DNA of 61,110 nucleotides, filler included, from a bacterium (GCA_024275095.1; 5 parts of 5 records of this genome joined end to end with filler, not necessarily neighbours in it), one strand, 5' to 3'. Shown: positions 1,008-18,906, counted from the first letter of the whole stretch. Made by a program: numbers and translations. Notes: generated from the sequence alone by a model not told the origin.

Positions 1008-3650
1008 GTGAAGAGTAAAGACATCAGGGAGAGCTTTCTTGCATATTTTGAAAGGCAGGGACACGCGCGTGTGCCCAGTTCACCTCTCATTCCCGCAGAT
1101 GACGAAACGCTCCTTTTTACCAATGCAGGTATGGTCCAGTTCAAGAAGGTGTTTGTGGGGGAGGAGTCCAGACCCTACACTCGCGCCACTTCCTGCCAGA
1201 AATGCATGAGGGCTGGTGGCAAGCACAATGACTTGGAGAACGTGGGGCGTACAGCTAGGCATCACACGTTTTTCGAGATGCTGGGCAACTTTTCTTTTGG
1301 TGATTATTTCAAGGAAGAGGCCATTTCTTTTGCCTGGGAGCTTATGACGCGTGAATTTGGTATCCCTGCAAATAGGCTTTACGTCACTGTTTATAAGGAA
1401 GACGATGAAGCGAGAACACTGTGGAAAAAAATCGCAGGGCTTCCGGACGAGCGAATCGTCGGACTGGGAGAGAAAGACAACTTCTGGGCCATGGGAGAAA
1501 CCGGCCCATGCGGTCCATGTTCTGAAATTATCTACGATCAGGGTGAGGAGATGGGGTGCGGCAGGCCCAACTGTGGAGTTGACTGCGATTGCGACCGGTA
1601 TCTCGAAGTGTGGAATCTGGTGTTCATGCAGTACAACAGGCAGGATGATGGAACACTGGAGCCACTCCCTCGTCCCAGCATTGACACGGGCATGGGATTG
1701 GAAAGGATTACCGCTGTGCTCCAGGGTGTGAAAACCAACTACGATACAGACCTTTTTCTCGGATTGATGGAGGAAGGCAGGCGGTTGCTTGGTTGTGGAG
1801 ACAGTGATGAAGACACTGTAACTCTCCGGGTTGTTTCAGACCATGCAAGAGCCACCGCTTTCCTTATAGCAGATGGTGTTTATCCCACCAATGAGGGGCG
1901 GGGATATGTGCTGAGGCGCATTATCAGGCGGGCGGTGCGTTTTGGCTGGAAGGCCGGTGCAAGAGAGCCTTTTCTGAATCGGTTGTGCACCAGAGTGATA
2001 GAGGAGATGAGTGATGTTTACCCTGAGTTGCGCGACCGCTGTGATACCATCGTTCGACTGGTAGAGATAGAGGAAAATCGCTTTTTGTCCACCATTGAAC
2101 GCGGGCTTGAAACATTCGAGGAAGAAGTAAAAAAAGTGCTATCCACCGGGGGAAAGATTGTTCCTGGAGAGGCTGTTTTTCGGCTTTATGACACATTTGG
2201 TTTCCCTCCAGACCTTACGCGTCTGATGGCGGAGGAAAAAGGGCTTTCCATTGATGAGGAGGGATTCCAAAGAGAGATGGCCCGGCAAAAGGAACGAGCC
2301 CGCAGCGTGTGGAAAAGCCGTACGGGAGACACGGTTTCAGAGGGGCCGTTTCAGGAGTTTATCACAAAGGACAACTTCGTGGGCTACACGTGTATTGACG
2401 TAAGCACGCAGGTGCTTGCCCTGGCAAAAGAAGGAGCACTGGTGGATTGTTTGAGGGAGGGTGAAGAAGGTCAGGTGCTGCTCGAAGAATGCCCGTTTTA
2501 TGGAGAGTCCGGGGGGCAGGTGGGTGATACGGGAATTATAGAAAACAGCAATATGAAAGCAGAAGTTACAGATGCGAAAAAAGCGGGCTCTGCTGTCGTG
2601 TGCCACATAAAAATAGTGAGGGGTAAGCTGGAAACAGGAGATGGAGTAGAAGCACGCGTGGATGAGGCGAGGCGACGGGCTATCATGCGCAATCATACAG
2701 CAACCCATTTGTTGCACGCGGCTCTCAGGAAGGTGCTCGGTGAACATGTGCAGCAGGCGGGTTCACTGGTGGAGCCGGAACGTTTGCGTTTTGATTTTTC
2801 TCACTATCAGGCCCTTACGGATGAAGAGTTGCAAAAGGTGGAACGTCTTGTGAGGCAGTGGATTATGGACAACCGGCATGTGCGCGTTGAATGGATGAGT
2901 CTGGAGGAGGCTCGAAGTAAGGGAGCAATGGCCCTTTTCGATGAAAAATACGGAGACCGCGTCAGGGTGGTAAGTGTAGAAGGTGTCAGTGCAGAACTGT
3001 GCGGAGGTACTCATTTGAGTGCTACGGGTGAGGCAGGCCCGTTTATCATTGTGGCTGAGTCATCAGTGGCTTCAGGTGTCAGGAGAATAACAGCCCTTAC
3101 AGGTGATGGAGCATACAGGTATATAACCGAAAAGGAAGGTGAAATCAGGCTTTTGGTCAATGCACTCGGGGCTTCTTCTTCGAAGGAGGCTTTGAAGCGG
3201 GCGGAGAATCTTAAACAGCGCATCCGCCGGTTAGAACAGGAGATTGAGCGATTGAAAGAAATGTTGACCCGGGGTGAAGGTGCTTCCTCAAAAGTGTCTG
3301 AAGAGGTTGTGGACGGAATCAGGGTCATTACCGGGGCGTATGAGGATCTCGACAGGAACACCCTTGGGCGAATGGTGGATGAATTCAGGGACAAGAAGGC
3401 TCCAGCTGCGGTTCTTCTCATGTCCTCCACAGACGGCCTTGTGGTGACCGTGTGCGGAGTATCGCGTGACATCGCATCTCGACTCAATGCCTCTGAGCTT
3501 ATCAAGCGGGTAGCACCTGTGGTGAAGGGAAGCGGGGGTGGTCGTCCCGATTTTGCGCAGGGTGGTGGAAAAGATCCTTCCGGGATTCCCGAGGCATTAA
3601 AAGCGTTTGTTTCCGCGGTGAAGGATTTTCTCAGGCGAGAGAACGCCTGA
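1008..3650 (+). CDS. alaS: Alanine--tRNA ligase
   Basis: LLFTNAGMVQFK, RHHTFFEMLGNFSFGDYFK, editing-domain HTATHLL and ELCGGTH, C-terminal GGGRPDFAQGGG; likely start GTG at 1008. Confidence 0.98.
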   Translation: MKSKDIRESFLAYFERQGHARVPSSPLIPADDETLLFTNAGMVQFKKVFVGEESRPYTRATSCQKCMRAGGKHNDLENVGRTARHHTFFEMLGNFSFGDYFKEEAISFAWELMTREFGIPANRLYVTVYKEDDEARTLWKKIAGLPDERIVGLGEKDNFWAMGETGPCGPCSEIIYDQGEEMGCGRPNCGVDCDCDRYLEVWNLVFMQYNRQDDGTLEPLPRPSIDTGMGLERITAVLQGVKTNYDTDLFLGLMEEGRRLLGCGDSDEDTVTLRVVSDHARATAFLIADGVYPTNEGRGYVLRRIIRRAVRFGWKAGAREPFLNRLCTRVIEEMSDVYPELRDRCDTIVRLVEIEENRFLSTIERGLETFEEEVKKVLSTGGKIVPGEAVFRLYDTFGFPPDLTRLMAEEKGLSIDEEGFQREMARQKERARSVWKSRTGDTVSEGPFQEFITKDNFVGYTCIDVSTQVLALAKEGALVDCLREGEEGQVLLEECPFYGESGGQVGDTGIIENSNMKAEVTDAKKAGSAVVCHIKIVRGKLETGDGVEARVDEARRRAIMRNHTATHLLHAALRKVLGEHVQQAGSLVEPERLRFDFSHYQALTDEELQKVERLVRQWIMDNRHVRVEWMSLEEARSKGAMALFDEKYGDRVRVVSVEGVSAELCGGTHLSATGEAGPFIIVAESSVASGVRRITALTGDGAYRYITEKEGEIRLLVNALGASSSKEALKRAENLKQRIRRLEQEIERLKEMLTRGEGASSKVSEEVVDGIRVITGAYEDLDRNTLGRMVDEFRDKKAPAAVLLMSSTDGLVVTVCGVSRDIASRLNASELIKRVAPVVKGSGGGRPDFAQGGGKDPSGIPEALKAFVSAVKDFLRRENA

Positions 3651-4291: not shown

Positions 4292-5704
4292 TCAAGGTTC
4301 TTTGATGCCGTGGTATTTGAGCTTGTACCTGAGGGTGCTTCGTGCGATGTTGAGCATGGCTGCTGCGAGAGTCTGATTGCCTCGCGCTTTTTTCAATGTG
4401 TAGAGCAGAAGGTTGCGTTCAAATTCGTCCACCAGGTCTTTGAGGTTCTGCCCGGGGCCTTCCCCGCGTGCTGAACGCTCGAGTTGTGTGTCAACGTAAT
4501 ACTCCATGGGAAGATCCAGCATTTCAATGTAACCTGTTTCGTTAAGGGCGACCAGACGCTCGATGAGATTCTGGAGTTCGCGGATGTTACCCGGCCAGGA
4601 ATATTCCATAAGAATTTTGAGTACACTTTCGTCAATTCCCCGGATTTCTTTCCCCATCATGCGGGAATATCTGGTGATAAAGTAATTGATGAAGTCCGGT
4701 ATATCTTCCTTGCGTTCACGCAGTGGTGGAAGATGAAGAGGAATCACGTTGAGGCGATAGTAAAGGTCTTCTCGAAATTTTCCTTCCCTGACCAGTCGTT
4801 TGAGATTCTTGTTTGTGGCGGCGATAATGCGTGTTCGCACCTTGACCGTGCGCTCTCCGCCAACACGTTCAAACTCTCCGGTTTGAAGCACCCGGAGCAG
4901 CTTTCCCTGAAGAGCCACGGGTGTATCACCGATCTCGTCCAGAAAGATGGTTCCTCCGTCAGCGAGTTCAAATTTTCCAAAATGTCGCTGGGTGGCCCCT
5001 GTAAAGGCTCCCTTTTCATGCCCGAAGAGAACGGACTCAGCAAGCTCGGGCGTGAGGTTGTTTACGTTTACGGTCACAAACGGTCCATCTGAAAATGGCG
5101 ATTTGTTGTGAATGTATCGGGCCAGGATTTCTTTTCCTGTGCCGCTCTCTCCGGTTATGAGTATGGTTGAGGGAAGGCGCGCTATCTTTTCTGCCACTTC
5201 AAAGATTTTCTGAACGTGACGATTGCGACCGATAATAAGGGTTTTGAGCTCTTCCTCTTCTTCGGTACCTTCAGCTACTAACTGAATTTGTTTTCTCACC
5301 TGGATGCGTTCAAATGCTCTTTCCACCCGTGTACACAGCTCTTCTCTGGAAAATCCCTTGACAAGGTAATCAAACGCTCCTTTCTGCATGGCTTCCACAA
5401 CCAGGGGAATATCCTTGAGTACCGAGATCATGATGATTTCCACGTTGAAGAAGTGGTTTTTAATTTTTTCCAGGAGTTCGAGTCCGTCTTCCTCTCCCAG
5501 GCGGATGTCCAGGAGAATGACGTCTATGTTGACACGGTTGAGTACGGCCAGAGCTTCTCCGCCCCCGGAAGCTTCGTATACCTCATATTCATCGCTCAAG
5601 AATTCCCGCACGGTGTTGCGGTCGGATTCTTTGTCGTCAATGACAAGTACACGTCGAACAGGCTGTAGAGGTATCTCAATGATCCGTGATGGCTCTACTG
5701 GCAT
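4292..5704 (-). CDS. Sigma54-dependent response regulator (NtrC family: receiver + AAA+ + Fis HTH)
   Basis: Receiver (VIDD, LLDI), GESGTGKE Walker A, GAFTGA, FLDEIG, WPGNIREL, C-terminal GNQTLAAAMLNIARSTLRYKL HTH. Confidence 0.95.
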   Translation of the reverse strand: MPVEPSRIIEIPLQPVRRVLVIDDKESDRNTVREFLSDEYEVYEASGGGEALAVLNRVNIDVILLDIRLGEEDGLELLEKIKNHFFNVEIIMISVLKDIPLVVEAMQKGAFDYLVKGFSREELCTRVERAFERIQVRKQIQLVAEGTEEEEELKTLIIGRNRHVQKIFEVAEKIARLPSTILITGESGTGKEILARYIHNKSPFSDGPFVTVNVNNLTPELAESVLFGHEKGAFTGATQRHFGKFELADGGTIFLDEIGDTPVALQGKLLRVLQTGEFERVGGERTVKVRTRIIAATNKNLKRLVREGKFREDLYYRLNVIPLHLPPLRERKEDIPDFINYFITRYSRMMGKEIRGIDESVLKILMEYSWPGNIRELQNLIERLVALNETGYIEMLDLPMEYYVDTQLERSARGEGPGQNLKDLVDEFERNLLLYTLKKARGNQTLAAAMLNIARSTLRYKLKYHGIKEP

Positions 5705-6063
5705 TAAATGTACCTCGTAACGATGTTGAGAAGCTCGCGGAAATGAAAGGGTTTGCGTATAAACTCATCGCATCCGGCGCGGCGACAGCGTTCTTCTGTA
5801 TCTGGGTCGCTTTTTGCAGTGATAATAATAACCCGGGTTGATGAAAGCTCTGGGTGGGATTTTACAAAGCGACATATGGTATCACCCGTCATCCCGGGCA
5901 TTGCATAGTCTATTAAAGCCACCTGAGGCCGTTCTGATTGAATTTTCTTGAGGGCCTCTGTCCCGTCCGTGGCGGTAATAATGGTACATCCTGTCCGCCG
6001 CAAAAGCACCTCTTCTAACTTCACCACACTGACCGCATCATCCGCGATAAGTATCTTTTTCAT
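5704..6063 (-). CDS. Single-domain response regulator (CheY-like receiver)
   Basis: ILIADD, LIDYAMPGMTG, IITA, KPF motifs; stop overlaps start of the NtrC-type gene. Confidence 0.92.
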   Translation of the reverse strand: MKKILIADDAVSVVKLEEVLLRRTGCTIITATDGTEALKKIQSERPQVALIDYAMPGMTGDTICRFVKSHPELSSTRVIIITAKSDPDTEERCRRAGCDEFIRKPFHFRELLNIVTRYI

Positions 6064-6289
6064 GATATTTAAACAATATAAGCAAAGGTTCGTCCCTTTT
6101 CAATGAAAAATCTGGAGTCTCGCCCGTGAGATGGGACTTTCCGTGCATGTGTCAGAATTTCGCGTCAAAAGTTTTAGGTGTTTCTGAAACCTGAATGTGT
6201 TTTAAGAGGTTAGAACACTCGAAAAAGGAGGAAGTTCGGCTTAACAGGAAGTAAAATAAAAGACATTTCATGGGCCGAGGGGGTTAAGG

Positions 6290-8281
6290 GTGAATGTTTT
6301 GGTGACACTTGCACTCATTCAGCAAATTGCTATGGAACGAATGTTGTTCAGACCCGTAACGTCTCCTGCATCCTGGGTTGAAGCGATTAGTACTGCCCAG
6401 ATGGAAAAGTGGGGCAAACTTCACACAGATGGGAGCCTTTCACTTGTTCCGGGAGTGTATTCCACGGGTTCCATGCATCCGGGAACACCCGTGAACGTGC
6501 TTGTTCGCGGTGGCGTGCCGTACGGGGTACAGGTGTATCTCGAGGGTGTATTGCTCAGGTCTGTTCTCAATGCCGGTCAGTTCAATCTGACAGGGTTCGT
6601 TCCCGAGGGCATTGGAGGACTTGAGGTTTTCAGCGGGCCGTCGGCCACGCTCCTTGGAGCTGAATCATCGTCTGGAGGAATAAACGTACTTTTCCCGCCA
6701 CATGTTCAGGGACTGAATTCTTACGTTCAGGTAACAGAGGGCGGCTACGTGAGAGCTGGAGCTGGATACGGTGGCAGGGCCGGAGATGCTCTGCGGTATT
6801 CTTTGCTTGCAGGAGGAGAGCTCACCCTCAGGGACCGGTACGGAAGGGATGCCGATGGAAGCTACGGGATCCTGAACGTCCAGGGTAAGCTCGGCCGGTG
6901 GACGCTCAGGCTGAAGGGATATTTTCTGGAAAAAAGGTGGGAGGTGGGATTCAAGTTTTCCCAGGTGCTCACTGTTCAACGATTCATTCAAGATCAACAG
7001 CAAAATCCTGACATCCAGATGTTCATGCCGGTGGGTGTGATTGATCCCAACCAGCGTTACAGGCAGGGACTTGCGTATTTGCTCGCGGAGGGAACTTCCA
7101 GCTGGAACGGGGACAGCGTGAACCTGCAGGTTTACGTGGCACGCACTGGAGAGTCTTTACTGGATATGCCTGATGACCACGATAGTTCCCTGAGCTTTGG
7201 ATTGACAGGAGAGGAGGTTCTCCATCGTGTGCGTTCATGGAGATACGGCGGCAGAGTTCACTGGACTTCTCAGACCCGGTGGGGACTGTGGGCCTCACGT
7301 GCTGGTATTGAAGGGGAGAGCCTGGAAACGTTTTGCCTTTCTCCCGTGGGATTTTGTGGTGCGGAGGTGTCACAGGATTTTTCAGACGAAAGAGTCGATG
7401 GCTGGGTAGGATTGGAATACTTTAATCGGTTTAGTGTTATGGGGGTGTCGGCGGCGGGACGCATTGATTACATCAGTCGTTACAGTACAGTGGAGAACCT
7501 TTCCGGGCGCGTGTTTCTTTATATTCCGCCTGTTGTAAGAGATCTGAAAATTACACTTTCAGGAGCAATATCCAGGGGAGTAAGGGTACCGCGAATGGAT
7601 GAACTTTACTTTGGTGACAGGGCGAACCCGGCATTGCGTCCTGAAAAGGGTCTCATGAAGGAACTCGCGGTCCTTGCTTCGTGGCAGGGGACTCCTCTGG
7701 CGATTCAGTTCAGAACCATGTATTTCAAAAACAATTTCAAAGACCTCATTACGCGCGGCATAGATCCTTCTCGCCCCGGGGCTCTCGTGTACGTGAACCT
7801 GGACAACGGAGTGAGCGAGGGTGTGGAAGGAGTGTTCAATCTTGAAGCTTTTAAAAAAGTTTTTCTGAAACTGGTGGCAACGCGGATGAGCATGAGAAGG
7901 CAGACACCCCTGTCCGGCTGGAAGGATCTGCTCGTACACCTTAAGCCCAGATACATCGTTAACGCATACACGGGAGTAGAAGACGGCTTGTGGAGCGTGG
8001 TTGCTCAGTGGGAATCGGTGGGGCCGTGGAAGGAACCCTTGCCCTATGTGGATGAAAATGGCGAAGTCCATGGAGACCCCGTTGCTCGGGCTCCCTTCGA
8101 GCAGAAAGGTTACAACTTGCTGCATATCTATGCCCGGCTGAATCTGAAGAAAATAAGGAGTATTGAAAGACTTTCTGTGTTTGTGAAGGTATACAATCTT
8201 TTGAACAGGAAATACCGCCTTCCTGGCGGTTTCCCGGGGATTCCTCGAACGGTTACTTCAGGCATTGAGCTTTCCATGTAA
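6290..8281 (+). CDS. TonB-dependent receptor (plug + beta-barrel)
   Basis: Plug-like LVPGV...VRGG...VYLEGV...LEVFSGPSATLLGAESSSGGINV; barrel motifs P...ELY...NPALRPEKG, NLLNRKY...G.PRT, amphipathic C-terminal strand. Confidence 0.85.
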   Translation: MNVLVTLALIQQIAMERMLFRPVTSPASWVEAISTAQMEKWGKLHTDGSLSLVPGVYSTGSMHPGTPVNVLVRGGVPYGVQVYLEGVLLRSVLNAGQFNLTGFVPEGIGGLEVFSGPSATLLGAESSSGGINVLFPPHVQGLNSYVQVTEGGYVRAGAGYGGRAGDALRYSLLAGGELTLRDRYGRDADGSYGILNVQGKLGRWTLRLKGYFLEKRWEVGFKFSQVLTVQRFIQDQQQNPDIQMFMPVGVIDPNQRYRQGLAYLLAEGTSSWNGDSVNLQVYVARTGESLLDMPDDHDSSLSFGLTGEEVLHRVRSWRYGGRVHWTSQTRWGLWASRAGIEGESLETFCLSPVGFCGAEVSQDFSDERVDGWVGLEYFNRFSVMGVSAAGRIDYISRYSTVENLSGRVFLYIPPVVRDLKITLSGAISRGVRVPRMDELYFGDRANPALRPEKGLMKELAVLASWQGTPLAIQFRTMYFKNNFKDLITRGIDPSRPGALVYVNLDNGVSEGVEGVFNLEAFKKVFLKLVATRMSMRRQTPLSGWKDLLVHLKPRYIVNAYTGVEDGLWSVVAQWESVGPWKEPLPYVDENGEVHGDPVARAPFEQKGYNLLHIYARLNLKKIRSIERLSVFVKVYNLLNRKYRLPGGFPGIPRTVTSGIELSM

Positions 8282-8377
8282 AAAACATTTCCTGGCCCGG
8301 GGTTACTTGGTATCAAGATTCAAAAAAGAAAAGAACAGCAAGTCCTTCAGGCGATATTCCGCTTCGAAGAGAAAGTG

Positions 8378-8481
8378 TGGCGAAAAGTTGCCTTTTGACA
8401 AAATTCAGCCATTTGGTTTTGACAGTGGCATAGAGGTCACTCTGCCTGGTGTGTAAATTTTTATCTGGCCGAAATTGGTCA
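8378..8481. promoter_or_regulatory. Three TGRC-N8-GYCA palindromic sites (candidate enhancer-binding-protein UAS)
   Basis: TGGC-GAAAAGTT-GCCT (8378-8393, one mismatch), TGAC-AAAATTCA-GCCA (8396-8411), TGGC-CGAAATTG-GTCA (8466-8481), upstream of the rSAM gene. Confidence 0.5.
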
Positions 8482-8534
8482 GGCACGGCTCGATCGCTTC
8501 GCTGCTAAGTTCCTGAGAATTCGGCAGAAACATG

Positions 8535-8551
8535 TTGGCACAAACCTTCCC
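8535..8551 (+). promoter_or_regulatory. Candidate sigma54 (-24/-12) promoter
   Basis: TTGGCAC-AAACC-TTCCC versus consensus TGGCAC-N5-TTGCW; perfect -24 box, G at -13 replaced by C. Confidence 0.45.
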
Positions 8552-8564
8552 TTTGTAGTGTGGC

Positions 8565-9824
8565 GTGCGATGGTCAACCTACAACGTGGAAATACCCCTT
8601 ACAGAAAAACTGAAAATGATCTACAACCCATTCACGGGTGGAGAGGTCATTGTTGAAGATTCGGGTGGAGATTTGGATGCAGACACCGCAGAGGTGCTGG
8701 CAGAAGCGGGTTTGGTGGTGGATGGGGATGAGGAAGCCGAATATTCGCGCGTTAGAGAGTCAATTTTTGCTGATTCCACCATGGGCCATGCCACGCTTCT
8801 CCTCACAACTGCCTGTAACTTCAGGTGTGTTTATTGTTTCCAGGAAGGTGAACGTCCACGCTACATGGATGACTTCACGGCAGAGGCAACAGCATGTTTT
8901 CTCGTAAACAGAGTGAAGGAGAGAGGGCTCGAGGGCCTGAGGCTCGTGTTTTACGGGGGCGAGCCCCTGATGAATTTGCGCGCTCTGCGCATCATTGCAC
9001 GCTATTGCAGGCACGGGTTAAACGGGCGGTTCGAGGCTGGTGTGATTACCAACGGATACTATCTCACTCCCGAGGTTATCCGCGAGCTGTGGGATCTGGG
9101 CGTCCAGTGGGTCAAGGTTACCATTGATGGAGTTCCGCCTTTTCACGAGAAGATGAGACCGGCGAGGCACGGCAGGCCCACCTTTGAAAGGCTTTTTTCC
9201 AACATGGTGAAAGCGGGCGAAAAACTCCGCGTCATCCTGGCAGCCAATTACACGGCTGAAACAGTGGAAGGTGTTTACCGGCTTGTTGATTACGTTGCAG
9301 CTCGAGGTGGACAGCAGTTTATAGACAAGTTTTTTGCTCGTCCGGTATTTGGAAAGCTTCTGTGCGACTCGGGGGCAGATATTTATTCATATGCACACAG
9401 CGATATCGAAGAGCTTTTCCGCGTGAACATGCATGCGGCCAAGCGCGGGTTCCCCATCAAGGACTTTTTCCACCTGGGCCCATGCAATTTTTACGATGCC
9501 TCGAGCCTGGCAGTGGATCCTGTGGGCAATGTGTACCCCTGCGAGGGTCTCGTGCATTTCCCGGAGTTTAAGGCTGGCAATGTAAGTCGAAGTGTTGATG
9601 AAACCGCTCTCGTGGACGTGAAAAAGGTGGAGCGTTTTCGCCCGTGCCGGCGCTGCCCGTATCTTCCCGCGTGCGGGGGTGGATGCGCTGTTTCCGCGCT
9701 TGTTGCCCGGGGCTCGCACGAGAAGGTGATGTGCGAGAAAACCTTTTTTGAGCGGGCGGGCGTAAGGTTTCTGAAAGAAAGGGCCCTTTCTGAAATAACA
9801 CAACAAAAGGAGGTGGCAATATGA
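8565..9824 (+). CDS. Radical SAM/SPASM-domain peptide maturase
   Basis: CNFRCVYC (CxxxCxxC), FYGGEPL, ITNGY, VTIDG; SPASM region GPC...GNVYPC...CRRCPYLPACGGGC...C (Cx2Cx5Cx3C plus 3 more Cys); ~70-aa N-terminal extension. Confidence 0.93.
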   Translation: MRWSTYNVEIPLTEKLKMIYNPFTGGEVIVEDSGGDLDADTAEVLAEAGLVVDGDEEAEYSRVRESIFADSTMGHATLLLTTACNFRCVYCFQEGERPRYMDDFTAEATACFLVNRVKERGLEGLRLVFYGGEPLMNLRALRIIARYCRHGLNGRFEAGVITNGYYLTPEVIRELWDLGVQWVKVTIDGVPPFHEKMRPARHGRPTFERLFSNMVKAGEKLRVILAANYTAETVEGVYRLVDYVAARGGQQFIDKFFARPVFGKLLCDSGADIYSYAHSDIEELFRVNMHAAKRGFPIKDFFHLGPCNFYDASSLAVDPVGNVYPCEGLVHFPEFKAGNVSRSVDETALVDVKKVERFRPCRRCPYLPACGGGCAVSALVARGSHEKVMCEKTFFERAGVRFLKERALSEITQQKEVAI

Positions 9825-9886
9825 AGGTACTGAAAATCAAAAAAGTGGTCCGCCAGAAAGCTGTTTGTTCATGGTACCTCTACTGA
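9821..9886 (+). CDS. Putative RiPP precursor peptide, 21 aa (MKVLKIKKVVRQKAVCSWYLY)
   Basis: ATG overlaps the rSAM stop (ATGA); strong SD AAGGAGGT 6 nt upstream; basic leader-like N-terminus and Cys/aromatic C-terminus; below the ORF-track size cut-off. Confidence 0.8.
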   Translation: MKVLKIKKVVRQKAVCSWYLY

Positions 9887-9927
9887 TTTTCCTGGAAAAG
9901 GGGGAGCAAAGCCCGTAACATAACCCC

Positions 9928-11376
9928 GTGGTGGGGTTGAGAAATTCAAAGGGGCAGGGGGTAGGGTTCTACCTGCTCCCCTTTTTCTTGTTTGTTTTTG
10001 TGTTGGGTGGTGTTTCAAGTTGTAGAGTCCATGAAAAGCGCCAAGAGTTAAGAGTAGGAGTAGTAGATTACGTTCAGCTTTATATTCCTGCACAACAGGA
10101 AATTGCGACGATAGGACCCTTTAGTACTGCCATCAATGAGCTTCGGAGAGAGAAAGTATGGACGGAACGCTATTGGGAAGCTAAGGATAATGGCAGAAAA
10201 ATTGTGTGTGGTGAAATGAAAAAATTAAATAAAAAAATCAACATGGAAAAACTTATTGATAGTTTAAATACAGCAGCAAAACGTTCTTTTTATATAACGG
10301 GTCACAATGGCTTTGTATTTTCAAGACTGCGTTTTGAAAAAGGCTCTTCCGAATGTCCTCTTAAGGTTTTGTTTCCTTCATACATATCTCCTTTAGAAGT
10401 GATGGCAATATTAAAAAGAAGAGCTTTTGTTATTTCACAGGAAAAGAAGAAAAGATTGTTTGTGATTGACCACCTGAATTCCGCGGAGGTTGTTTTAAAG
10501 AGAAACCCTTTGGCTGAACAGAAAAATAATTTTTCACAAATATTCCTCAAGGCCTATCCCCGTCCGGAAAAGGCTTTTGCAGCACTTCTCAACGGAGACG
10601 TGGACCTGGCCTTTCCTGTTCCATATTTTTTGTACAGCGCATACAAAAGTGTCAGCGGCCTCGAGTTTAAACTGTATAACATCGAGAACTTCGTTTACAT
10701 TATTGCCTTCAACCACAAACATCTTGGAACCGGTGAAAACGATGTGCTCCACAAGGTGCTGGACCTCGCTGCTGACAGGGAAAGAATCAACAGGGATGTG
10801 TTCGGCGGCCTGGCAAACCTCGAAGGCTTCTGGCCCTGGAGGTACGATCCTGTTGAAGCCATGAAGATGCTCGACGAGCACGGGTGGCACTATGCTCCCC
10901 ATTCTTCCATCAGGGAAAAGAACGGTAAGAAGTTAATGCTGAAGGCAGCCTTTCCCGAATGGTGGCCCGAGGGGCGACGTATTCTGTTTCTCTTGAAAAG
11001 AGATTTTTATCGAATAGGCATCGGGCTTGATGTAAAATCCATAAGCTTCGAAGAAATGAGGAAAATTTTTGTCGAACAAAAAGACGATTTTGACCTCGTT
11101 TTTATCATGGGTGTGGTGGGTTATCCTCACACCCCGCTTGCGCTCTGGTGCAGGAAACTGGCAGGCCGGTTCAACCCGTTTGCATACGATGACCCTGACT
11201 TCTGCCGGGCTTCTGCAAAAGGTGACGCAGAAGGAGTCATTCGGGCTGCGTTAAAGAACCCGCCTTTTGTGTTCATCGCGGAAGCCCCCGTGGTTGTGGC
11301 TGCGGATGAACTGCTGGAGATTCCCCGGGAGAGCTACCTTTTTGAGAATATCCAGCAGTGGAGGTTCCGCCATTAA
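9928..11376 (+). CDS. Extracytoplasmic solute-binding lipoprotein, family 5 (OppA/DppA-like)
   Basis: Hydrophobic signal ending VSSC; ALLNGDVDL, IAFNH, DRERINRDVFGG, YDPVEAMKMLDEHGW...REKNGKKL, RIGIGLDV, DFDLV motifs; exact start uncertain. Confidence 0.8.
   Translation: MVGLRNSKGQGVGFYLLPFFLFVFVLGGVSSCRVHEKRQELRVGVVDYVQLYIPAQQEIATIGPFSTAINELRREKVWTERYWEAKDNGRKIVCGEMKKLNKKINMEKLIDSLNTAAKRSFYITGHNGFVFSRLRFEKGSSECPLKVLFPSYISPLEVMAILKRRAFVISQEKKKRLFVIDHLNSAEVVLKRNPLAEQKNNFSQIFLKAYPRPEKAFAALLNGDVDLAFPVPYFLYSAYKSVSGLEFKLYNIENFVYIIAFNHKHLGTGENDVLHKVLDLAADRERINRDVFGGLANLEGFWPWRYDPVEAMKMLDEHGWHYAPHSSIREKNGKKLMLKAAFPEWWPEGRRILFLLKRDFYRIGIGLDVKSISFEEMRKIFVEQKDDFDLVFIMGVVGYPHTPLALWCRKLAGRFNPFAYDDPDFCRASAKGDAEGVIRAALKNPPFVFIAEAPVVVAADELLEIPRESYLFENIQQWRFRH
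9951..9986 (+). terminator. Terminator-like hairpin with U-tract downstream of the peptide gene
   Basis: GGGGCA(GGG)GGTAG-ggtt-CTACC-TGCTCC followed by CC-TTTTT; overlaps the predicted N-terminus of the next ORF. Confidence 0.45.
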
Positions 11377-13057
11377 AACCTCTGTGCGAACACGGTTGTG
11401 GAAACTTGTGCTCGCGGCAGCCATTGTGCCCGTGATATTTTATGGCCTTCTTAACGCAGCAACCTTTCTCAGGATGACGGCAGAGTCCACACGCGAAAGG
11501 CTCAAACGCGTGGGCAGCAGGGTCTCCGAGGAAATTACTTCTTATATAAAGCACAACTTTGACATCATGGAAACTCTTGTTGAATCTTTCTCCGGAGCGA
11601 TGATGACACCTGAGCAGGTGGATGTGCTCCTTAAAAACTATGTTGTTAATTTTTCCCGGATCAGGGACATGCAAATCCGGGTGGGTCGGCACTGGTATTA
11701 CGCAATATTACAAAAGCCCATGGTCACTCCTCCCCTTTTTTCGATTTCAGCAGAAAAAGCTGTCTCCTCGATTGCTTTTGAAAAGGAAACGGGGCTTCCT
11801 GTGATTTTTTTGCAGTTGAAAAAGAAGGATTCTATTCTCGGTGACGTTGAGGTGACGGCAAGAGTGAGCATTATTGACCTCTGGAAACGCCTTATGAATG
11901 CAGAAGCTGATACCGGCATTACGTTTATCCTGACCGACGGGCAGGCTCGCATCATCGCTCACAGTCGCAAAACGCGGAAAGCCCAGGCCCTGGTATTTAA
12001 TGACACGAGGGTCAGGGATTTCCTGGCGCACAGCTCGGATAACCTTTTCGTTCGGGAACCTGACGAAACTTATTCCATGGTGGTGACGCAGGAAGTTAAG
12101 GGTCCCGGGTGGTTTCTCGCTGCTGCCCAACCTGTTGGCATGTGGGGGAGCAAGGCATTTTATACTGCACTGCGAATATTTGCCTTTATTCTTTCCTTTG
12201 TGTCTTTTGCGACCCTCGTATCTTATTATCAGGGTGGATACATAACCGGTGCTGTAGAGGAACTCGTGAAAGGCACAAGGGAGACAGCGGCAGAGAATTT
12301 CTCGTATCGGATCAGGTTGAGAACCGGAGATGAGCTGGAAGAACTCGCAGATGCCTTCAACGAAATGAACACTCGGATAAGAGAACTGCTCGAAGAGGTA
12401 AAAGAAAAGGAAAGAAAGCTGACGTTTGTAAGGCTCATTCGAGGTGTGCTGCACGACCTCAAGCATCCTTTTGCTGGCATGAAAACTGCACTTTCTTTTC
12501 GCGATGCAGAAAAGATGAAGGAGCAAATCTCACGGCATATTGAAGAGACAGAACAGCTTTTTGAGGACCTCCAGGCTCTCGGGCAGGAAAAACTGGAAAT
12601 CCCTCTTTTAAAGACTCCAGTGCATGAGGTGGTGAAAGAAGCGGTGGACATGTATAGCGACGCCGCGAAACGAAAAGGGATTGCCATAAGTTTTCAAACA
12701 CCTGAAAAAATTTACGCTCATGCTCATCCACAGTATTTGCTGCGTGTGCTGTGCAATCTGGTAGAAAACGCTGTTCAGGCCACGTCCCACGGAAAAATCG
12801 AAGTTATTGCAAAAGATGAGGGTGAGAAGATTAAAATAGTAGTGGTGGATACAGGAAAAGGCATTCCTCCGGAGAACCTTCCGCGAATTTTTCAATGGGA
12901 GTTTTCCACCAAGCATCGTGGTCTGGGATTGGGATTGGCGTTGTGCAAGCGTTTTGTAGAAGCAATGGATGGAAGCATAACAGTGGAAAGTGAGGTGGGG
13001 AGGGGAACGACCTTTACCATTGTGCTAAAAAAGCACAGGGAGGAGAAAAATGCCTGA
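11372..13057 (+). CDS. Membrane sensor histidine kinase (2 TM, periplasmic Cache-like, HAMP, HisKA, HATPase)
   Basis: Two TM segments, HAMP (TGDELEELADAFNEM), H-box LHDLKHP, NLVENAVQA, DTGKGI, FSTK, GLGLGL; start ATT 11372 or GTG 11384. Confidence 0.93.
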   Translation: MKTSVRTRLWKLVLAAAIVPVIFYGLLNAATFLRMTAESTRERLKRVGSRVSEEITSYIKHNFDIMETLVESFSGAMMTPEQVDVLLKNYVVNFSRIRDMQIRVGRHWYYAILQKPMVTPPLFSISAEKAVSSIAFEKETGLPVIFLQLKKKDSILGDVEVTARVSIIDLWKRLMNAEADTGITFILTDGQARIIAHSRKTRKAQALVFNDTRVRDFLAHSSDNLFVREPDETYSMVVTQEVKGPGWFLAAAQPVGMWGSKAFYTALRIFAFILSFVSFATLVSYYQGGYITGAVEELVKGTRETAAENFSYRIRLRTGDELEELADAFNEMNTRIRELLEEVKEKERKLTFVRLIRGVLHDLKHPFAGMKTALSFRDAEKMKEQISRHIEETEQLFEDLQALGQEKLEIPLLKTPVHEVVKEAVDMYSDAAKRKGIAISFQTPEKIYAHAHPQYLLRVLCNLVENAVQATSHGKIEVIAKDEGEKIKIVVVDTGKGIPPENLPRIFQWEFSTKHRGLGLGLALCKRFVEAMDGSITVESEVGRGTTFTIVLKKHREEKNA

Positions 13058-13286
13058 CAAACTGGAAAGGGTGGATATAAGAGAAGATTTCCACGATGAA
13101 TATGTGGAAGTGAGGTATTATCGTTCCTTGAGTATAGATGGCTCCGTCTCGTATTATGCGCATGTGATATTCGGCTCAGGGGACAGCTTCATTATCGACG
13201 ATGCGGATATAGACAGTGTCGCGGCAAAGGTGGAACGCATCCTTCCAGTATCGTATTATGTAAGGCAAATGGGTAACCATACCTGA
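13050..13286 (+). CDS. Hypothetical protein, 78 aa
   Basis: SD GGAGGAG before the ATG; overlaps the kinase stop; no recognised motif. Confidence 0.65.
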   Translation: MPDKLERVDIREDFHDEYVEVRYYRSLSIDGSVSYYAHVIFGSGDSFIIDDADIDSVAAKVERILPVSYYVRQMGNHT

Positions 13287-13295
13287 GTTGACCAG

Positions 13296-14282
13296 ATGAG
13301 CGAGATCGTATGGCAGAAAGATAATGTACGGATTGTACGATTTGGCACCCGTACACCCTGGCCGCCAAGCCATGCCAACGCGTATCTCATTGATGATGAA
13401 GTGGTCACGCTTGTGGATACGGGTTTGTGCCTGGACGAAAGCATTCAGATGATCGAAGATTATTTGAACTCGCGCAAACTTCGCATCCACAGAATTGTTA
13501 TCACTCACGGTCACATAGACCACTATGGTGCCGTCGGCGCTTTTCGGGAACGTTATCCTTCCGCTGTTGTTTTATGTCATAAAGCCGACGCGGACAAGTT
13601 GACCCGAAAGGTCTCGGAAGGAATAGAAGAAGCCTCTGAAACAATGCGGGAGTTTTTTACTTCTCAGGGAGTCCCTGAAACAGCCGTTCACATGAGCGGT
13701 GAAATGCTGCGCATACTGGATGGCGTGGTGTGTCCTGTGTATGATATTGAGTTTTTGAAGGGTGGAGAGGTTCTTGAGTCAGGAGCCATCAAGTTAAAAG
13801 TTGTGCACGTACCAGGACATTCTCCGGGTCAGGTGGTATTGTACGATGAGAAACACGGGATTCTTTTTTCCGGAGATCACGTGCTTTCCAAGAAACCTCC
13901 AACCCCGCTGATTGAAATGACGGGGGAAGGCAAGTTTTTTAACAATATCATTCATTATGTTGACTCTCTTCATTACGTGAGAAATTTTAAAGTTCAACTT
14001 GTATTGCCCGGGCACTGGCGTACCTTTGAAGACCTCAGTACAAAAGTGGATGCCCTGTTGAAGTATTACGAGATGAAAAAATGGGAAACCAAAAACGTCC
14101 TTGAAAAAGCCGGTCGCCCCATGAATGCGTATGAGATCGCCAGAGCCCTGTTTCCCGAAATGCCTGAAGGGGTGTTTTTCATAGGGGTTTCAGAAGCAAT
14201 TGGTTACCTGTCCCTTCTTGAAAAGGATGGCGAAGTTGTGGCCGACAAAACTTCTCATCCCGTTCTTTACCATCTGGTCTGA
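13296..14282 (+). CDS. MBL-fold metallo-hydrolase with C-terminal winged helix
   Basis: LVDTG, THGHIDHYG, PGHSPG, FSGDH, LPGH. Confidence 0.9.
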   Translation: MSEIVWQKDNVRIVRFGTRTPWPPSHANAYLIDDEVVTLVDTGLCLDESIQMIEDYLNSRKLRIHRIVITHGHIDHYGAVGAFRERYPSAVVLCHKADADKLTRKVSEGIEEASETMREFFTSQGVPETAVHMSGEMLRILDGVVCPVYDIEFLKGGEVLESGAIKLKVVHVPGHSPGQVVLYDEKHGILFSGDHVLSKKPPTPLIEMTGEGKFFNNIIHYVDSLHYVRNFKVQLVLPGHWRTFEDLSTKVDALLKYYEMKKWETKNVLEKAGRPMNAYEIARALFPEMPEGVFFIGVSEAIGYLSLLEKDGEVVADKTSHPVLYHLV

Positions 14283-14326
14283 TTCCTTACAAGCAGAATC
14301 GGTCCTCTGGTCGCACAGCGAAATAC

Positions 14327-14356
14327 TTGACATCTGTTCCGCGGGTTGTTTATTAT
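14327..14356 (+). promoter_or_regulatory. Sigma70-type promoter of the SCP2 gene
   Basis: TTGACA-18 nt-TATTAT, then SD AGGAGG before ATG 14399. Confidence 0.5.
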
Positions 14357-14398
14357 CGTTAACACAATGAACACTATATTACGAAAAGGAGGGATAGC

Positions 14399-14860
14399 AT
14401 GGTAGAGGAAGCATTTGTGAAGGAAATTCAGGGTTTGTCAGACGAAGAGTTGGCAGCAAGGGTAAAGGAGGCTGTGGAGAAAAATGACCGCAAGGCCCTT
14501 GCTCAGATTTCTGCTGCTGCCACAGCGCGTCAGACTTACGAGGTCATCATTCCCACTGCTTCAGCTGCTCGTCCGGACCTTGGTGAGAAACTCAAGGGCA
14601 CCAAGGCTGTGTTCAAATTCGTTATCGAAGGCGAAGGCGGTGGAGTGTGGTGTCTCGTGATTGATGACGGTAACATCAGCGTGAAAGCCGAAGACGATCC
14701 CAATGCCAATGTGACCATTACCATGGCCGAAGCTGACCGCCAGGCAATGGCCCGAAGAGAGCTGGATCCTCAGATGGCTTTCATGCAGGGCAAGGTGAAA
14801 ATTGCCGGAGATATGGCTCTGGCCATGAAACTTCGTACATTGCTCCGGCCGCCCCAGTAA
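14399..14860 (+). CDS. SCP2 sterol/lipid-binding domain protein
   Basis: FVIEGEGGGVW...LDPQMAFMQGKVKIAGDMALAMKL. Confidence 0.9.
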   Translation: MVEEAFVKEIQGLSDEELAARVKEAVEKNDRKALAQISAAATARQTYEVIIPTASAARPDLGEKLKGTKAVFKFVIEGEGGGVWCLVIDDGNISVKAEDDPNANVTITMAEADRQAMARRELDPQMAFMQGKVKIAGDMALAMKLRTLLRPPQ

Positions 14861-16076: not shown

Positions 16077-17126
16077 ATGAGCCTTTTCAGCAGTGCGTAC
16101 TCCCTGGGCCTTGACATCGGGTCAAGTGCCCTGAAATTAGTAGAACTTAAAGAAACAAAGGGAGGATATGTCGTTACCAGGTGTGATTTTCAGGAGATTC
16201 CTCCTGATTCCATCGTAGATGGTCAGATCATAAACTATCAGTCAGTTAGTGCTGCACTGGAAGAACTGCTCAAACGTGCAAAGCCTCACACAAAACGGGT
16301 TACAACTTCCATTGCTGGCACGTCGGTGATTGTAAAAACGGTGAATCTTCCCATGATGACGCAAGATGAACTGGAACAATCTATTACCTGGGAAGCAGAG
16401 CAGTACCTTACTGTAGACATTAACGAAGTTAATCTGGATTTCCAGATTCTGGAGACACGACCTGAAGAAAATCAGATGAGTGTGTTACTGGTAGCAGCAA
16501 AAAAAGATATTATCAACGATTACGTTTCTGTGCTCAGTGAGCTCAAATATCAGCTTGTTGTGATGGACGTAGATTGCTTCGCGGTACAAAACATTTTTGA
16601 ATTTAACTATCCTACAGAGCCGGGCGAGATGGTGGTGCTTGTCAACATCGGAAGTCACATAACAAACGTGGAGCTTTACAGAGAAGGCAAGCCTGTGATT
16701 ACACGCGATATTTCCATTGGAGGCAACAGTATTACTGATGAGATGCAGAAGGTTCTGGGCTTTTCGTATGAAGAGGCTGAAGAAGTGAAAAAGAAGGTTT
16801 CAGAAGGAGAAGAAACGTCTGATCAGATCCTCGGCGTAATGAAAGCAGGAGTGGACAATCTTGTTGGTGAAATTCAGCGTACCGTCGATTTTCTGATGGG
16901 TTCTGTTGGAGAGTCAGATATCGCCCGCATTGTCATTTCTGGGGGGGCGAGCAAGACCTATGGGTTGCGTGAAGAACTCAGTAATGCTTATGGAAAGGAA
17001 GTGGAAGTACTTGATCCGTTCAAAAGTTTTCAACTGGATACTAAGGTGGTAGACCCTGCATTGATAAACTTTCTGGGTTCTGCAGCGACGGTAGCAGCGG
17101 GGCTGGCGTTGAGAAGAGGAGAGTGA
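16077..17126 (+). CDS. pilM: Type IV pilus assembly protein PilM
   Basis: GLDIGSSALKLVEL, WEAEQY, LDFQIL, VNIG, ISGG, GLALR; first gene of MNOPQ operon. Confidence 0.96.
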   Translation: MSLFSSAYSLGLDIGSSALKLVELKETKGGYVVTRCDFQEIPPDSIVDGQIINYQSVSAALEELLKRAKPHTKRVTTSIAGTSVIVKTVNLPMMTQDELEQSITWEAEQYLTVDINEVNLDFQILETRPEENQMSVLLVAAKKDIINDYVSVLSELKYQLVVMDVDCFAVQNIFEFNYPTEPGEMVVLVNIGSHITNVELYREGKPVITRDISIGGNSITDEMQKVLGFSYEEAEEVKKKVSEGEETSDQILGVMKAGVDNLVGEIQRTVDFLMGSVGESDIARIVISGGASKTYGLREELSNAYGKEVEVLDPFKSFQLDTKVVDPALINFLGSAATVAAGLALRRGE

Positions 17127-17135
17127 GGGATACCC

Positions 17136-17720
17136 ATGATTAAGATCAATTTATTACCCGTAAGGGAAGTCAAAAAACGTGAGGAGCTGAGGAATCACTT
17201 CATCATTGTAGGTATTATGGCATTGGTGGTTGTAATTATTATTGCGTATTTGAAAATTTCCATATCATCGTCCATAAAAAAAGTTCAAAGGGATATTGCA
17301 CAGACAAGGGCCGAAATTCAGAGGCTGGAGAAAGTTATTGGAGAAGTCAATAAGATCAAACAAATCAAAAAAGAACTGGAAGATAAATTAAGGGTGATTG
17401 ATCAGTTGAGCTCCGATAGAGATTATGTTGTGCACCTGCTCGATGAGCTTGCGATGGCTATTCCTGTCGATTACGCACGTAAAATACCTCGAAAAATCCA
17501 GCTGACTTCATTTGAGAAAAAAGGAAATGCTGTGACGATTAAAGGTGTTTCCCTGGATAATGATTCCGTTTCTGTGTTTGTCAACAACCTGGAGAAGTCT
17601 CCGTACTATCAGGCCGTGAGCATAAAGAAACTGACTAAAAAGATGAGGCAGAGAATTCGGACGTACGAGTTTGAAGTGCTGGCTACGGTGGAAAAGCCGA
17701 GAGGAGGAGGTAATCCGTGA
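17136..17720 (+). CDS. pilN: Type IV pilus assembly protein PilN
   Basis: MIKINLLP motif, TM, coiled coil, NLEKSPY. Confidence 0.95.
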   Translation: MIKINLLPVREVKKREELRNHFIIVGIMALVVVIIIAYLKISISSSIKKVQRDIAQTRAEIQRLEKVIGEVNKIKQIKKELEDKLRVIDQLSSDRDYVVHLLDELAMAIPVDYARKIPRKIQLTSFEKKGNAVTIKGVSLDNDSVSVFVNNLEKSPYYQAVSIKKLTKKMRQRIRTYEFEVLATVEKPRGGGNP

Positions 17721-18373: not shown

Positions 18374-18376
18374 GCG

Positions 18377-18904: not shown

Positions 18905-18906
18905 AT

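Follow-up and report, generated by a model that had tools for sequence, protein, structure and literature searches.

A radical SAM-peptide module under apparent sigma54/two-component control that may sense its own product

The region at positions 4292-13057 of the window (the whole stretch of DNA analysed here, 61,110 nt including filler, in which parts of five records of GCA_024275095.1 are joined) is best read, from sequence comparison, as a divergent representative of a module that is conserved but undescribed, in which a radical SAM (rSAM)/SPASM peptide maturase and a very short precursor gene are accompanied by an orphan solute-binding lipoprotein, a membrane histidine kinase and an NtrC-type activator (Table 1). 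It is very likely that the enzyme and the 21-aa peptide constitute a real RiPP pair, and a functional link between this pair and the two-component system is likely as well; the fuller interpretation, that of a RiPP under sigma54/two-component control that senses its own product, has in our estimate an even chance of being right. Each of the seven genes named in the preliminary description proved to be an intact open reading frame at the position listed in Table 1. A literature search covering the main texts of openly accessible papers returned none that describes the module.

Table 1 Features of the analysed region (positions counted from the first letter of the window)
Feature	Position	Strand	Basis or remark
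NtrC-type sigma54-dependent response regulator (activator)	4292-5704	-	Pfam: receiver + Sigma54_activat + HTH_8 (AAA+ sigma54-interaction domain, Fis-type HTH)
Stand-alone receiver domain protein	5704-6063	-	Pfam Response_reg
TonB-dependent receptor (TBDR)	6290-8281	+	Plug and barrel domains
Sigma54-like -24/-12 element, TGGCAC-N5-TTCC	8536-8550	+	15 nt 5' of the rSAM start
rSAM/SPASM peptide maturase	8565-9824	+	CxxxCxxC, SPASM; N-terminal extension of ~75 residues
21-aa precursor peptide gene (P0001)	9821-9886	+	Homologous peptides in module loci
Terminator-like/attenuator hairpin + T-run	9957-9999	+	Hairpin 9957-9980; 9 pairs, 6 G-C
Orphan family-5 (AppA/OppA/NikA-type) solute-binding lipoprotein	9928-11376	+	SBP_bac_5
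Membrane histidine kinase	11384-13057	+	TM1, periplasmic sensor of ~240 residues, TM2, HAMP, HisKA, HATPase_c

The maturase scored 69 bits against Radical_SAM (cut-off 29.5) and 52 bits against the SPASM model TIGR04085 (cut-off 27), and 19.9 against the Pfam SPASM model, below the cut-off of 21.5. Its CxxxCxxC cysteines (C84/C88/C91) are invariant in 22 aligned sequences, and the SPASM-region cysteines C307, C326, C361, C364, C370, C374 and C390 are invariant in the aligned rSAMs. The GTG at 8565 was taken as the start codon because M1, S4 and N7 are likewise invariant in 22 aligned sequences. No close orthologue was found, the best identity being 31%, and the best curated family, TIGR04280, gave 174 bits, below its cut-off of 400; the module relatives, for which this is also the best-scoring curated family, gave 252-323 bits. 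The score against the PapB family model NF047865 was 101.8 bits, below the cut-off of 340.

The ATG of the peptide gene overlaps the rSAM stop codon and is preceded by a strong ribosome-binding site. The encoded peptide has a leader of the form MK[IV]..IKK, a single Cys at residue 16 and a C-terminal Tyr21, i.e., at position Cys+5; neither it nor nine of its relatives matched an NCBIfam model with the threshold relaxed to E <= 10. In 46 of the 58 module loci, the rSAM gene is followed by a homologue of this short gene, and in 7 further loci no sequence is left 3' of the rSAM gene. The family has one conserved Cys, and the residue at Cys+5 is D in 34, E in 5 and another residue in 3 of the 42 long peptides; in the 4 short peptides it is the aromatic C-terminus, and these four come from exactly the loci, the window included, that carry a TBDR gene, the match between peptide type and TBDR presence being exact for both types (4/4 short and 42/42 long). 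A metagenome scan contributed 80 more loci, none with more than 37% identity over the best segment, and added 12 long-type and no short-type peptide loci. A redox-cofactor precursor similar to those of PQQ or mycofactocin was considered and rejected, as no other tailoring enzymes are conserved and the conserved partners are envelope sensors.

An earlier contig scan with the window rSAM alone gave no relative among 77 pattern matches; the scan with the rSAM alignment A1 as the query yielded 80 distant rSAM loci. In 33 of these 80, an SBP_bac_5 protein and a full-length kinase homologue are both encoded within 6 kb of the rSAM gene, and the NtrC-type activator is also present in 28 of the 33. 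The preliminary description had proposed a test of whether homologous rSAM loci carry the same partners. They do as regards the peptide and the three proteins just named, but the TBDR is not a general part: it is located between the activator and rSAM genes in only 3 of the 33 complete loci, apart from the window. Its absence from the other 30 means that outer-membrane import would not be a general property of the module. In the rSAM tree (FastTree), a split with 97% support places on one side the 33 module rows together with 7 rows from contigs that were too short for the module to be assessed and the loci L024 and L080, and on the other side 38 rows, none of which has the module. The window rSAM is located on a long branch (1.82), with its exact place unsure. 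According to the labels in the sequence records, the hosts of module loci include Acidobacteriota, Myxococcota and Spirochaetota, and most members are Vicinamibacterales. Judged from sequence, the window's own lineage is distinct from these, the highest identity recorded for its AlaRS being 57%.

Diderm genomes commonly contain two-component genes, binding proteins and receptors. It is nevertheless extremely improbable that the region is a chance neighbourhood of unrelated genes, since the same set in the same order is present in 33 of the 80 distant loci, within one rSAM clade, and both the sensor domains (as orthologues) and the peptide (as a homologue) are shared. The only families that recur across the loci are the binding protein, the kinase, the rSAM and the activator. 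No exporter or leader peptidase, and likewise no inner-membrane importer, is conserved across the module loci; an MFS gene occurs in L006 and L016 only, and no dedicated exporter or processing protein was found in the window between 1 and 22 kb.

The signal peptide of the binding protein ends in V-S-S-C, the Cys being nearly invariant in the family, and SBP_bac_5 was matched by 30 of 30 aligned family members. The earlier assertion that this protein comes without ABC transporter genes was borne out, as no permease or ATPase gene was found between 1 and 22 kb; an orphan binding-protein gene beside a kinase gene is the arrangement of the LuxPQ/TorTS type. The best match of the family profile was the oligopeptide-binding protein AppA (1xoc, E 1e-89). 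The window protein is 17-21% identical to its relatives and weakly matches NikA and the metallophore binder CntA; among 7995 scored candidates, only the protein itself was recovered at E <= 1e-5.

The kinase gene most likely starts with the GTG at 11384, 8 nt past the binding-protein stop codon; the two genes are thus close but non-overlapping, which revises the preliminary description. The Cache domain also attributed to this kinase was not detected by Pfam in the window, whereas dCache_1 was detected in 21 of 22 aligned kinases, the window being the exception, and from this alignment we infer that the window sensor is dCache-like. The H-box and G-boxes correspond to invariant columns, and the tblastn matches span both the sensor and the kinase core (residues 21-585, ~27% identity) in ~30 loci. 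When residues 33-482 of the binding protein were co-folded with residues 26-262 of the kinase, i.e., its sensor, the score was 0.50, against 0.00 for the best of three controls. The mark applied is one that 58 of 80 solved complexes attain, as do 2 of 110 mismatched pairs; with a score of <=0.60, it is attained by only 7 of those 80 and by both of the mismatches. The runs had at least 54% shared contacts and a partner pLDDT of at least 76. The model gives a slight indication that the binding protein could dock on the sensor domain.

As to the ligand, the chances that it is the cell's own peptide appear evenly divided. The binding protein and kinase could instead respond to a foreign signal, e.g., oligopeptides from the environment or a compound made by a competitor, with the peptide being output only, e.g., antimicrobial or protective, with no autoinduction. 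The resemblance of the binding-protein family to general oligopeptide, dipeptide and nickel binders and the lack of a conserved dedicated exporter or peptidase agree with such an external trigger, as does the combination of sigma54 control with a hairpin between the peptide and sensor genes, which fits a sensor-to-output layout. This hairpin is positioned 3' of the peptide gene, inside the part of the binding-protein gene coding for the signal peptide, and a comparable hairpin is located after the last peptide gene of L035 and of L016, L006 being without one. We nevertheless consider the external trigger rather unlikely, since the sensor and peptide genes stay together in very distant hosts while their surroundings change, and the type of peptide tracks the presence of the TBDR exactly (4/4, 42/42), a correlation to be anticipated if the peptide itself is what the envelope proteins handle.

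The TBDR of the window scored 35.7 bits for the Plug (cut-off 23.9), which is weak, and 69.6 bits for the barrel (cut-off 27), and over its whole length it can be aligned with the receptors that occupy this position in L006, L016, L035 and L024. TBDRs normally have a signal peptide with a charged start and an aromatic C-terminal residue. The window protein has an N-terminus without the positively charged start of a signal peptide and ends in Met (Phe in 4/4 aligned relatives), so the window copy may be impaired.

A receptor of this type is also part of methanobactin operons, whose regulation is of the ECF type. These operons combine a TBDR (MbnT) with an OppA/AppA-like periplasmic binder (MbnE) for the mature peptide (PMC7558416), but they differ from the present module in their maturation enzymes, in the metal-chelating product and in having no kinase or sigma54 activator. 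Analogous scavenging, in which a secreted peptide captures a metal or nutrient and is re-imported by the TBDR, after which the binding protein holds it and the kinase reports the loaded form, would accord with the weak matches of the binding protein to NikA and CntA. It is decidedly improbable: the single Cys is the only conserved potential metal ligand and would probably be tied up in a thioether, an inner-membrane importer is not among the conserved genes, the TBDR is missing in 30 of the 33 complete loci, and neither MbnB/MbnC-type enzymes nor an ECF sigma/anti-sigma pair were found around the locus.

The activator keeps the GAFTGA motif (at residue 231). In ~30 relatives, an activator with which the window protein shares 44-47% full-length identity is encoded immediately upstream of the rSAM gene. 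A sigma54-type motif, GG-N8-TTGC, is present within 260 nt upstream of the rSAM gene in 31 of the 33 module loci, with ~2.4 expected. A motif for the sigma54 promoter earlier postulated ahead of the rSAM-peptide genes is thus found in the relatives, whereas the window has only a non-canonical candidate: the canonical GG-N10-GC is absent from 8282-8564, and in the element TGGCAC-N5-TTCC the -12 part is without the G of GC. The relaxed form of the latter, TGGCAC-N5-TT[GC]C, which was chosen after the site had been seen, has a single match on both strands of the 61-kb window (0.31 expected), the window promoter being judged by simple motifs. Transcription from this near-match would start ~4 nt before the GTG, leaving no room for a ribosome-binding site. 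Inverted repeats for activator binding were not found in 8282-8564 or in L035, and those in L006 and L016 are A/T-rich or terminator-like only.

All of the window components are far more divergent than those of the relatives (rSAM bit score, binding-protein identity, no Cache match). The family could therefore be real and the window copy decaying or rewired, with loss of the working circuit; the non-canonical -12 element very near the start codon, the atypical ends of the TBDR, the long branches or weak scores of all parts and the lack of another binding-protein homologue at E <= 1e-5 among the 7995 scored candidates would then be explained. We regard this as improbable, because the seven open reading frames are intact and CxxxCxxC, the SPASM cysteines, the H-box, the G-boxes and GAFTGA are all kept. 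Moreover, the lineage is deep and poorly sampled, as its AlaRS indicates, so divergence need not mean decay.

In the self-sensing circuit that we favour, the rSAM/SPASM enzyme would bind the MK[IV]..IKK leader of the precursor and probably form one thioether ring, from Cys16 to the residue five positions on. The mature peptide, as the most likely ligand, would be exported and would cross the outer membrane via the adjacent TBDR; the lipoprotein binding protein would dock on the kinase's periplasmic dCache-like domain, the NtrC-type activator would receive a phosphoryl group from this kinase, and the activator would open the sigma54 promoter ahead of the rSAM-peptide genes. With the peptide as the ligand, the autoinduction loop would be closed.

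Since Cys+5 in the window is the C-terminal Tyr21, the acceptor would there be the carbon adjacent to the free alpha-carboxylate; in relatives with long peptides, an Asp/Glu side chain would take this role, with carboxylate-directed chemistry as for PapB. The module resembles the PapB/freyrasin system in the rSAM/SPASM enzyme and in a Cys followed by a carboxylate acceptor at fixed spacing, a likeness that fits the split between Asp/Glu and the C-terminus, and differs from it in that freyrasin has six Cys-X3-Asp rings, whereas one six-residue ring is predicted here. We know of no sensor genes beside papB. PapB is described as linking Cys to the carbon next to the Asp/Glu carboxylate and as also using a C-terminal carboxylate, an amidated C-terminus being left unprocessed; processing was likewise absent with C-terminal L-Ala, Lys, Phe, Asn, Ile or Gln, L-residues other than Gly being rejected (PMC12373016). 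For L-Tyr to serve as a C-terminal acceptor, the geometry of the active site would thus have to differ. If the prediction is true, the ring closed onto the peptide's own C-terminus in the TBDR branch would be a natural C-terminal macrocyclisation, so far confined to engineered PapB substrates, and the enzyme family may close thioether rings on either a side-chain or a C-terminal carboxylate, which is of interest for the production of stable cyclic peptides (PMC12373016).

The Agr, Com and nisin NisRK systems are similar to the module in that a ribosomal peptide gene is located beside a modifying enzyme and a kinase/regulator, with proposed self-induction. They differ from it in the diderm host, the separate periplasmic binding protein, the sigma54 enhancer-binding protein, the outer-membrane receptor in some loci and the absence of an AgrB- or ComA-type processing exporter in the module. 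Vibrio LuxP-LuxQ-LuxO likewise combines a periplasmic binding protein with a kinase in the membrane and an NtrC-type regulator that depends on sigma54. However, that system has a non-peptide ligand, AI-2, its kinase LuxQ is of the hybrid type and acts through LuxU, and the window activator scored 329 bits against the LuxO model (cut-off 800). Peptide autoinducers have been presented as a Gram-positive trait, and LuxQ as working in a complex with LuxP (PMC8895600). A diderm module of peptide, maturase, binding protein, kinase and activator, if true, would change this Gram-positive view of peptide quorum sensing. It is conceivable, though we hold it to be somewhat doubtful, that these are the first rSAM-cyclised ribosomal peptide autoinducers in diderms, with a Cys+5 carboxylate ring, a periplasmic binding-protein/dCache-kinase readout and sigma54 feedback, in Acidobacteriota (common soil Vicinamibacterales), Myxococcota, Spirochaetota and a deep thermophile-like lineage. 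Vicinamibacterales are abundant, rarely cultured soil bacteria, and to our knowledge their signalling is essentially unknown.

The best-scoring curated family is that of the geopeptide maturases, TIGR04280 (a "hypothetical equivalog", uncharacterised), which the tree split does not separate from the module rSAMs. L024 is a true member of it (477 bits), and its rSAM gene adjoins those of a TBDR, an orphan binding protein of the ABC_sub_bind type, a kinase and two receivers; in both the family of its binding protein and its type of regulator, L024 departs from the window. In addition, the peptides of L024, L046 and L001 are encoded upstream of the rSAM and have a Cys-Cys pair, whereas that of the window is encoded downstream and has one Cys.

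Finally, the lone receiver is not conserved in the related loci. In the window, its gene and that of the activator are divergent from the TBDR gene; its stop codon overlaps the activator start, so the two genes would form one operon, and a sigma70-like promoter (10/12 matches) is present ahead of it on the minus strand, at 6103-6075.

The window carries a very divergent member of a conserved gene module, which comprises a radical SAM (rSAM)/SPASM enzyme, a short Cys-containing peptide, a family-5 binding protein, a histidine kinase and an NtrC-type activator. The closest non-self match of the window rSAM in a collection of 5.8 billion proteins had 31% identity, and a pattern scan using this rSAM alone recovered no relatives. 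Scanning species genomes with a 22-sequence rSAM alignment (A1) yielded 80 loci, in which tblastn with the window proteins matched the activator in 37, the kinase in 35, the binding protein in 9, the lone receiver in 2, the receptor and the MBL-fold gene in 1 each, and the SCP2 gene and the peptide in none; neither the MBL nor the SCP2 gene is kept beside the module in other loci. The activator homologues were typically full length and 44–47% identical, with the gene directly upstream of that for the rSAM, and the kinase matches typically spanned residues 21–585, including the sensor. According to a more sensitive iterated profile search of all ORFs in the loci, a family-5 binding protein and a kinase were both located within 6 kb of the rSAM in 33 of the 80 loci, 28 of which also contained the activator; in 7 further loci the contigs end too early for the presence of the module to be judged. 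Clustering of all ORFs gave only four families recurring across the module loci (binding protein, kinase, rSAM and activator), with no conserved exporter or leader peptidase.

One split with 97% local support in the FastTree tree of the 80 rSAM rows separated 38 rows, none of them with the module, from a group that contains every one of the 33 module rows (32 loci plus the window), together with the 7 rows from short contigs and loci L024 and L080. The long branch of the window (1.82) makes its exact placement uncertain. The module hosts belong to Acidobacteriota (mostly Vicinamibacterales), Myxococcota (locus L016), Spirochaetota (L001) and Thermodesulfobacteriota (L046, partial). None of 8000 scored proteins was more than 57% identical to the window AlaRS (1011–3650), which places the window in a deep, poorly sampled lineage; the named best matches of this AlaRS (Thermodesulfatator, Thermosulfurimonas and Desulfurobacterium, 53–55% identity) are from thermophiles of hydrothermal settings.

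All genes named in the preliminary description, and the absence of ABC transporter genes from the locus and its flanks, were confirmed by the ORF list and domain scans of the window. The translational coupling proposed for the kinase and the binding protein was not upheld, given the start assigned to the kinase gene. The window activator retains the GAFTGA loop, which makes the contact with sigma54.

Features of the module locus in the window and its flanks
Feature	Position	Strand	Remarks
NtrC-type activator	4292–5704	minus	receiver, sigma54-interaction and Fis-type HTH domains
Stand-alone receiver	5704–6063	minus	stop overlaps activator start
Sigma70-like promoter facing receiver and activator genes	6103–6075	minus	10/12 matches
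TonB-dependent receptor	6290–8281	plus	domain scan
Radical SAM/SPASM enzyme	8565–9824	plus	domain scan
21-codon ORF, protein P0001	9821–9886	plus	ATG overlaps rSAM stop; strong ribosome-binding site upstream
SBP_bac_5 protein	9928–11376	plus	domain scan
Terminator-like hairpin with T-run, 3′ of peptide gene	9957–9980		
HAMP histidine kinase	start GTG 11384	plus	8 nt past binding-protein stop; alignment with 21 relatives
gyrB, alaS, thyX	one flank		
MBL-fold gene, SCP2 gene, Ig-domain protein, pilMNOPQ	other flank		

The region 3′ of the kinase gene (13050–14860) contains a 78-aa ORF without a Pfam match, the MBL-fold hydrolase gene and the SCP2 gene. The type IV pilus assembly operon pilM-pilN-pilO-pilP-pilQ is complete and spans 16077–21684, with a secretin of 925 aa that has AMIN and STN domains. 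This operon and the TonB-dependent receptor together show that an outer membrane is present in the organism. A single tRNA gene (54315–54387) was all that matched Rfam at the gathering threshold across the window.

The expected co-occurrence of the rSAM with the sensory genes held for the kinase, the binding protein and the activator, but not for the TonB-dependent receptor, which was absent from 30 of the 33 complete module loci. In the other three (L006, L016 and L035), a gene of 680–720 aa between the activator and the rSAM was assigned to this receptor class by Pfam, and L035 has the gene set of the window in the order activator, receptor, rSAM, peptide, binding protein, kinase. Between the binding protein and kinase genes of L006 (12940–14226, minus) and L016 (13148–14575, minus), two of the three receptor-bearing relatives, an MFS transporter gene runs in the opposite direction. 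This gene is missing from the window and L035; its product is a candidate peptide exporter. The window receptor itself has an odd N-terminus, and its last residue is Met versus Phe in its four relatives.

Precursor genes were surveyed in 58 loci with at least one module gene, obtained from genome and metagenome scans. A gene within 700 nt 3′ of the rSAM, with an MK[IV] start and a basic, β-strand-like leader, was present in 46 of them; in 7 the sequence ends at the rSAM, and in 5 the pattern was unmatched 3′ of the rSAM. One of these five (L025) has a peptide with a slightly different start, and two others (L001 and L046) carry a Cys-Cys peptide upstream of the rSAM, as in the geopeptide locus L024. 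No curated model covers the module peptides. Judging from this conservation, the 21-codon ORF of the window is a real gene of a precursor family. A single conserved Cys is found in every peptide, and the residue five positions after it (Cys+5) is Asp (34) or Glu (5) in 39 of 42 long peptides, the exceptions being Ala, Cys and one truncated sequence; in the four short peptides (window, L006, L016 and L035) it is Tyr or Phe and the final residue, so a carboxylate, either side-chain or C-terminal, is the common denominator. The short-peptide loci coincide exactly with the receptor-bearing loci (4/4), and the receptor was found in 0 of the 42 long-peptide loci. Precursor genes occur as three tandem near-identical copies in L016 (11204–11527) and as two copies in L009 (11631–11847). 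In addition, six Acidobacteriota loci, L005 (11450–11536), L009, L010, L012, L020 and L071, contain a second small ORF of about 25–29 aa between the rSAM and the Cys peptide, with a conserved G-T-L-R-P-W-L-V-D-V core, an L-R end and no Cys; it may act as another precursor or as a small regulator.

The best curated family for all module rSAMs was the uncharacterised geopeptide family TIGR04280, yet they scored under its cut-off of 400 bits (window 174, relatives 252–323); L024, with 477 bits, is by this score a true member. A study of the rSAM/SPASM enzyme PapB describes joining of Cys to the carbon adjoining an Asp or Glu carboxylate, use of the C-terminal carboxylate as an alternative acceptor and no processing of an amidated C-terminus (PMC12373016). 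The carboxylate at Cys+5 across the peptide family fits such chemistry, with the caveat that the peptides of the window, L006, L016 and L035 end in Tyr or Phe, whereas PapB, according to the same study, took C-terminal Gly and D-residues and rejected six L-residues, including Phe (PMC12373016).

On the sensor side, SBP_bac_5 was matched by all 30 aligned binding proteins, and the Cys after the signal peptide is nearly invariant, so the binding proteins are lipoproteins, as previously proposed. Their family profile matched best the oligopeptide-binding AppA (1xoc, E 1e-89), followed by peptide, nickel and opine binders. The Cache sensor attributed to the kinase was found as dCache_1 in 21 of 22 aligned kinases; the exception was the window kinase itself, though it aligns through the sensor. 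Co-folding of the window binding protein (33–482) with the kinase sensor (26–262), each with its own alignment, gave a score of 0.50 versus 0.00 for the best of three controls; the runs shared at least 54% of contacts, with partner pLDDT of at least 76. Of 80 solved complexes, 58 reached the mark, as did 2 of 110 mismatched pairs; with scores of 0.60 or below, just 7 of those 80 complexes and both mismatches did so. The model thus slightly raises the odds, already lifted by gene adjacency, that the binding protein may dock on the kinase sensor.

The proposed sigma54 promoter of the rSAM and peptide genes was supported in the relatives but not as a canonical site in the window. Among the 33 loci with an activator match above 200 bits, 31 carry the GG-N8-TTGC motif, with the spacing of sigma54 −24/−12 elements, no more than 260 nt upstream of the rSAM start, against 2.4 of 33 expected by chance from the motif frequency in the same loci, so sigma54 control of these genes is a family trait; the neighbouring activator would be the obvious driver. 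The motif is absent from the plus strand of the 283-nt window gap between the receptor and rSAM genes (8282–8564), and no GG-N10-GC site between 4000 and 13500 reached 8/11 consensus matches. The TGGCAC-N5-TTCC element at 8536–8550 was the sole match to TGGCAC-N5-TT[GC]C in the 61-kb window (0.31 expected), a relaxed motif picked after the site had been seen. Transcription from this element would begin about 4 nt ahead of GTG 8565, a start codon backed by invariant M1, S4 and N7 in the rSAM alignment; such spacing is awkward for initiating translation. In another sigma54-like near-match the spacer falls one base short, and a repeat search of the window promoter region found no candidate activator-binding repeats.

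The hairpin 3′ of the peptide gene, shared with L035 and L016 and absent from L006, lies within the signal-peptide coding region of the window binding protein. Since no in-frame start beyond it leaves a signal peptide, expression of the binding protein and kinase must occur by read-through. This arrangement suggests an attenuator that would set a high precursor-to-sensor ratio.

The interpretation of the locus as a diderm autoinduction loop, in which the modified peptide is taken up and sensed so as to activate its own promoter, gained partial support, and at the level of the family it is considerably strengthened. The closed loop is put forward as a hypothesis, because no exporter or leader peptidase is conserved, most module loci lack the receptor and the window receptor has odd ends; the window copy is possibly partly impaired. 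A sensor for an external cue, instead of for the module's own peptide, is the less favoured model, since the sensor and peptide genes are co-inherited across very distant hosts and the C-terminal form of the peptide tracks the presence of the outer-membrane receptor. In LuxPQ sensing, the downstream sigma54 regulator is LuxO. The closed loop would join this type of sensing, in which a binding protein assists the kinase, with Gram-positive peptide autoinduction (both described in PMC8895600), with RiPP re-uptake of the methanobactin kind (PMC7558416), which relies on a TonB-dependent transporter together with an OppA-like binder, and with PapB-type thioether chemistry. By curated cut-offs, the window module is a member of none of the four. 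It would represent known kinds of system in a combination undescribed in the full-text literature searched, a scope outside which subscription journals and the supplementary tables of large rSAM-RiPP surveys may list the family.

The geopeptide locus L024 (3670–11206) repeats this theme with other components: one strand carries two receivers, a kinase and an orphan binding protein of the ABC_sub_bind type, and the other carries the rSAM, a Cys-Cys peptide and a TonB-dependent receptor. Receptors also adjoin related rSAMs in the metagenome loci L097, L103 and L108.
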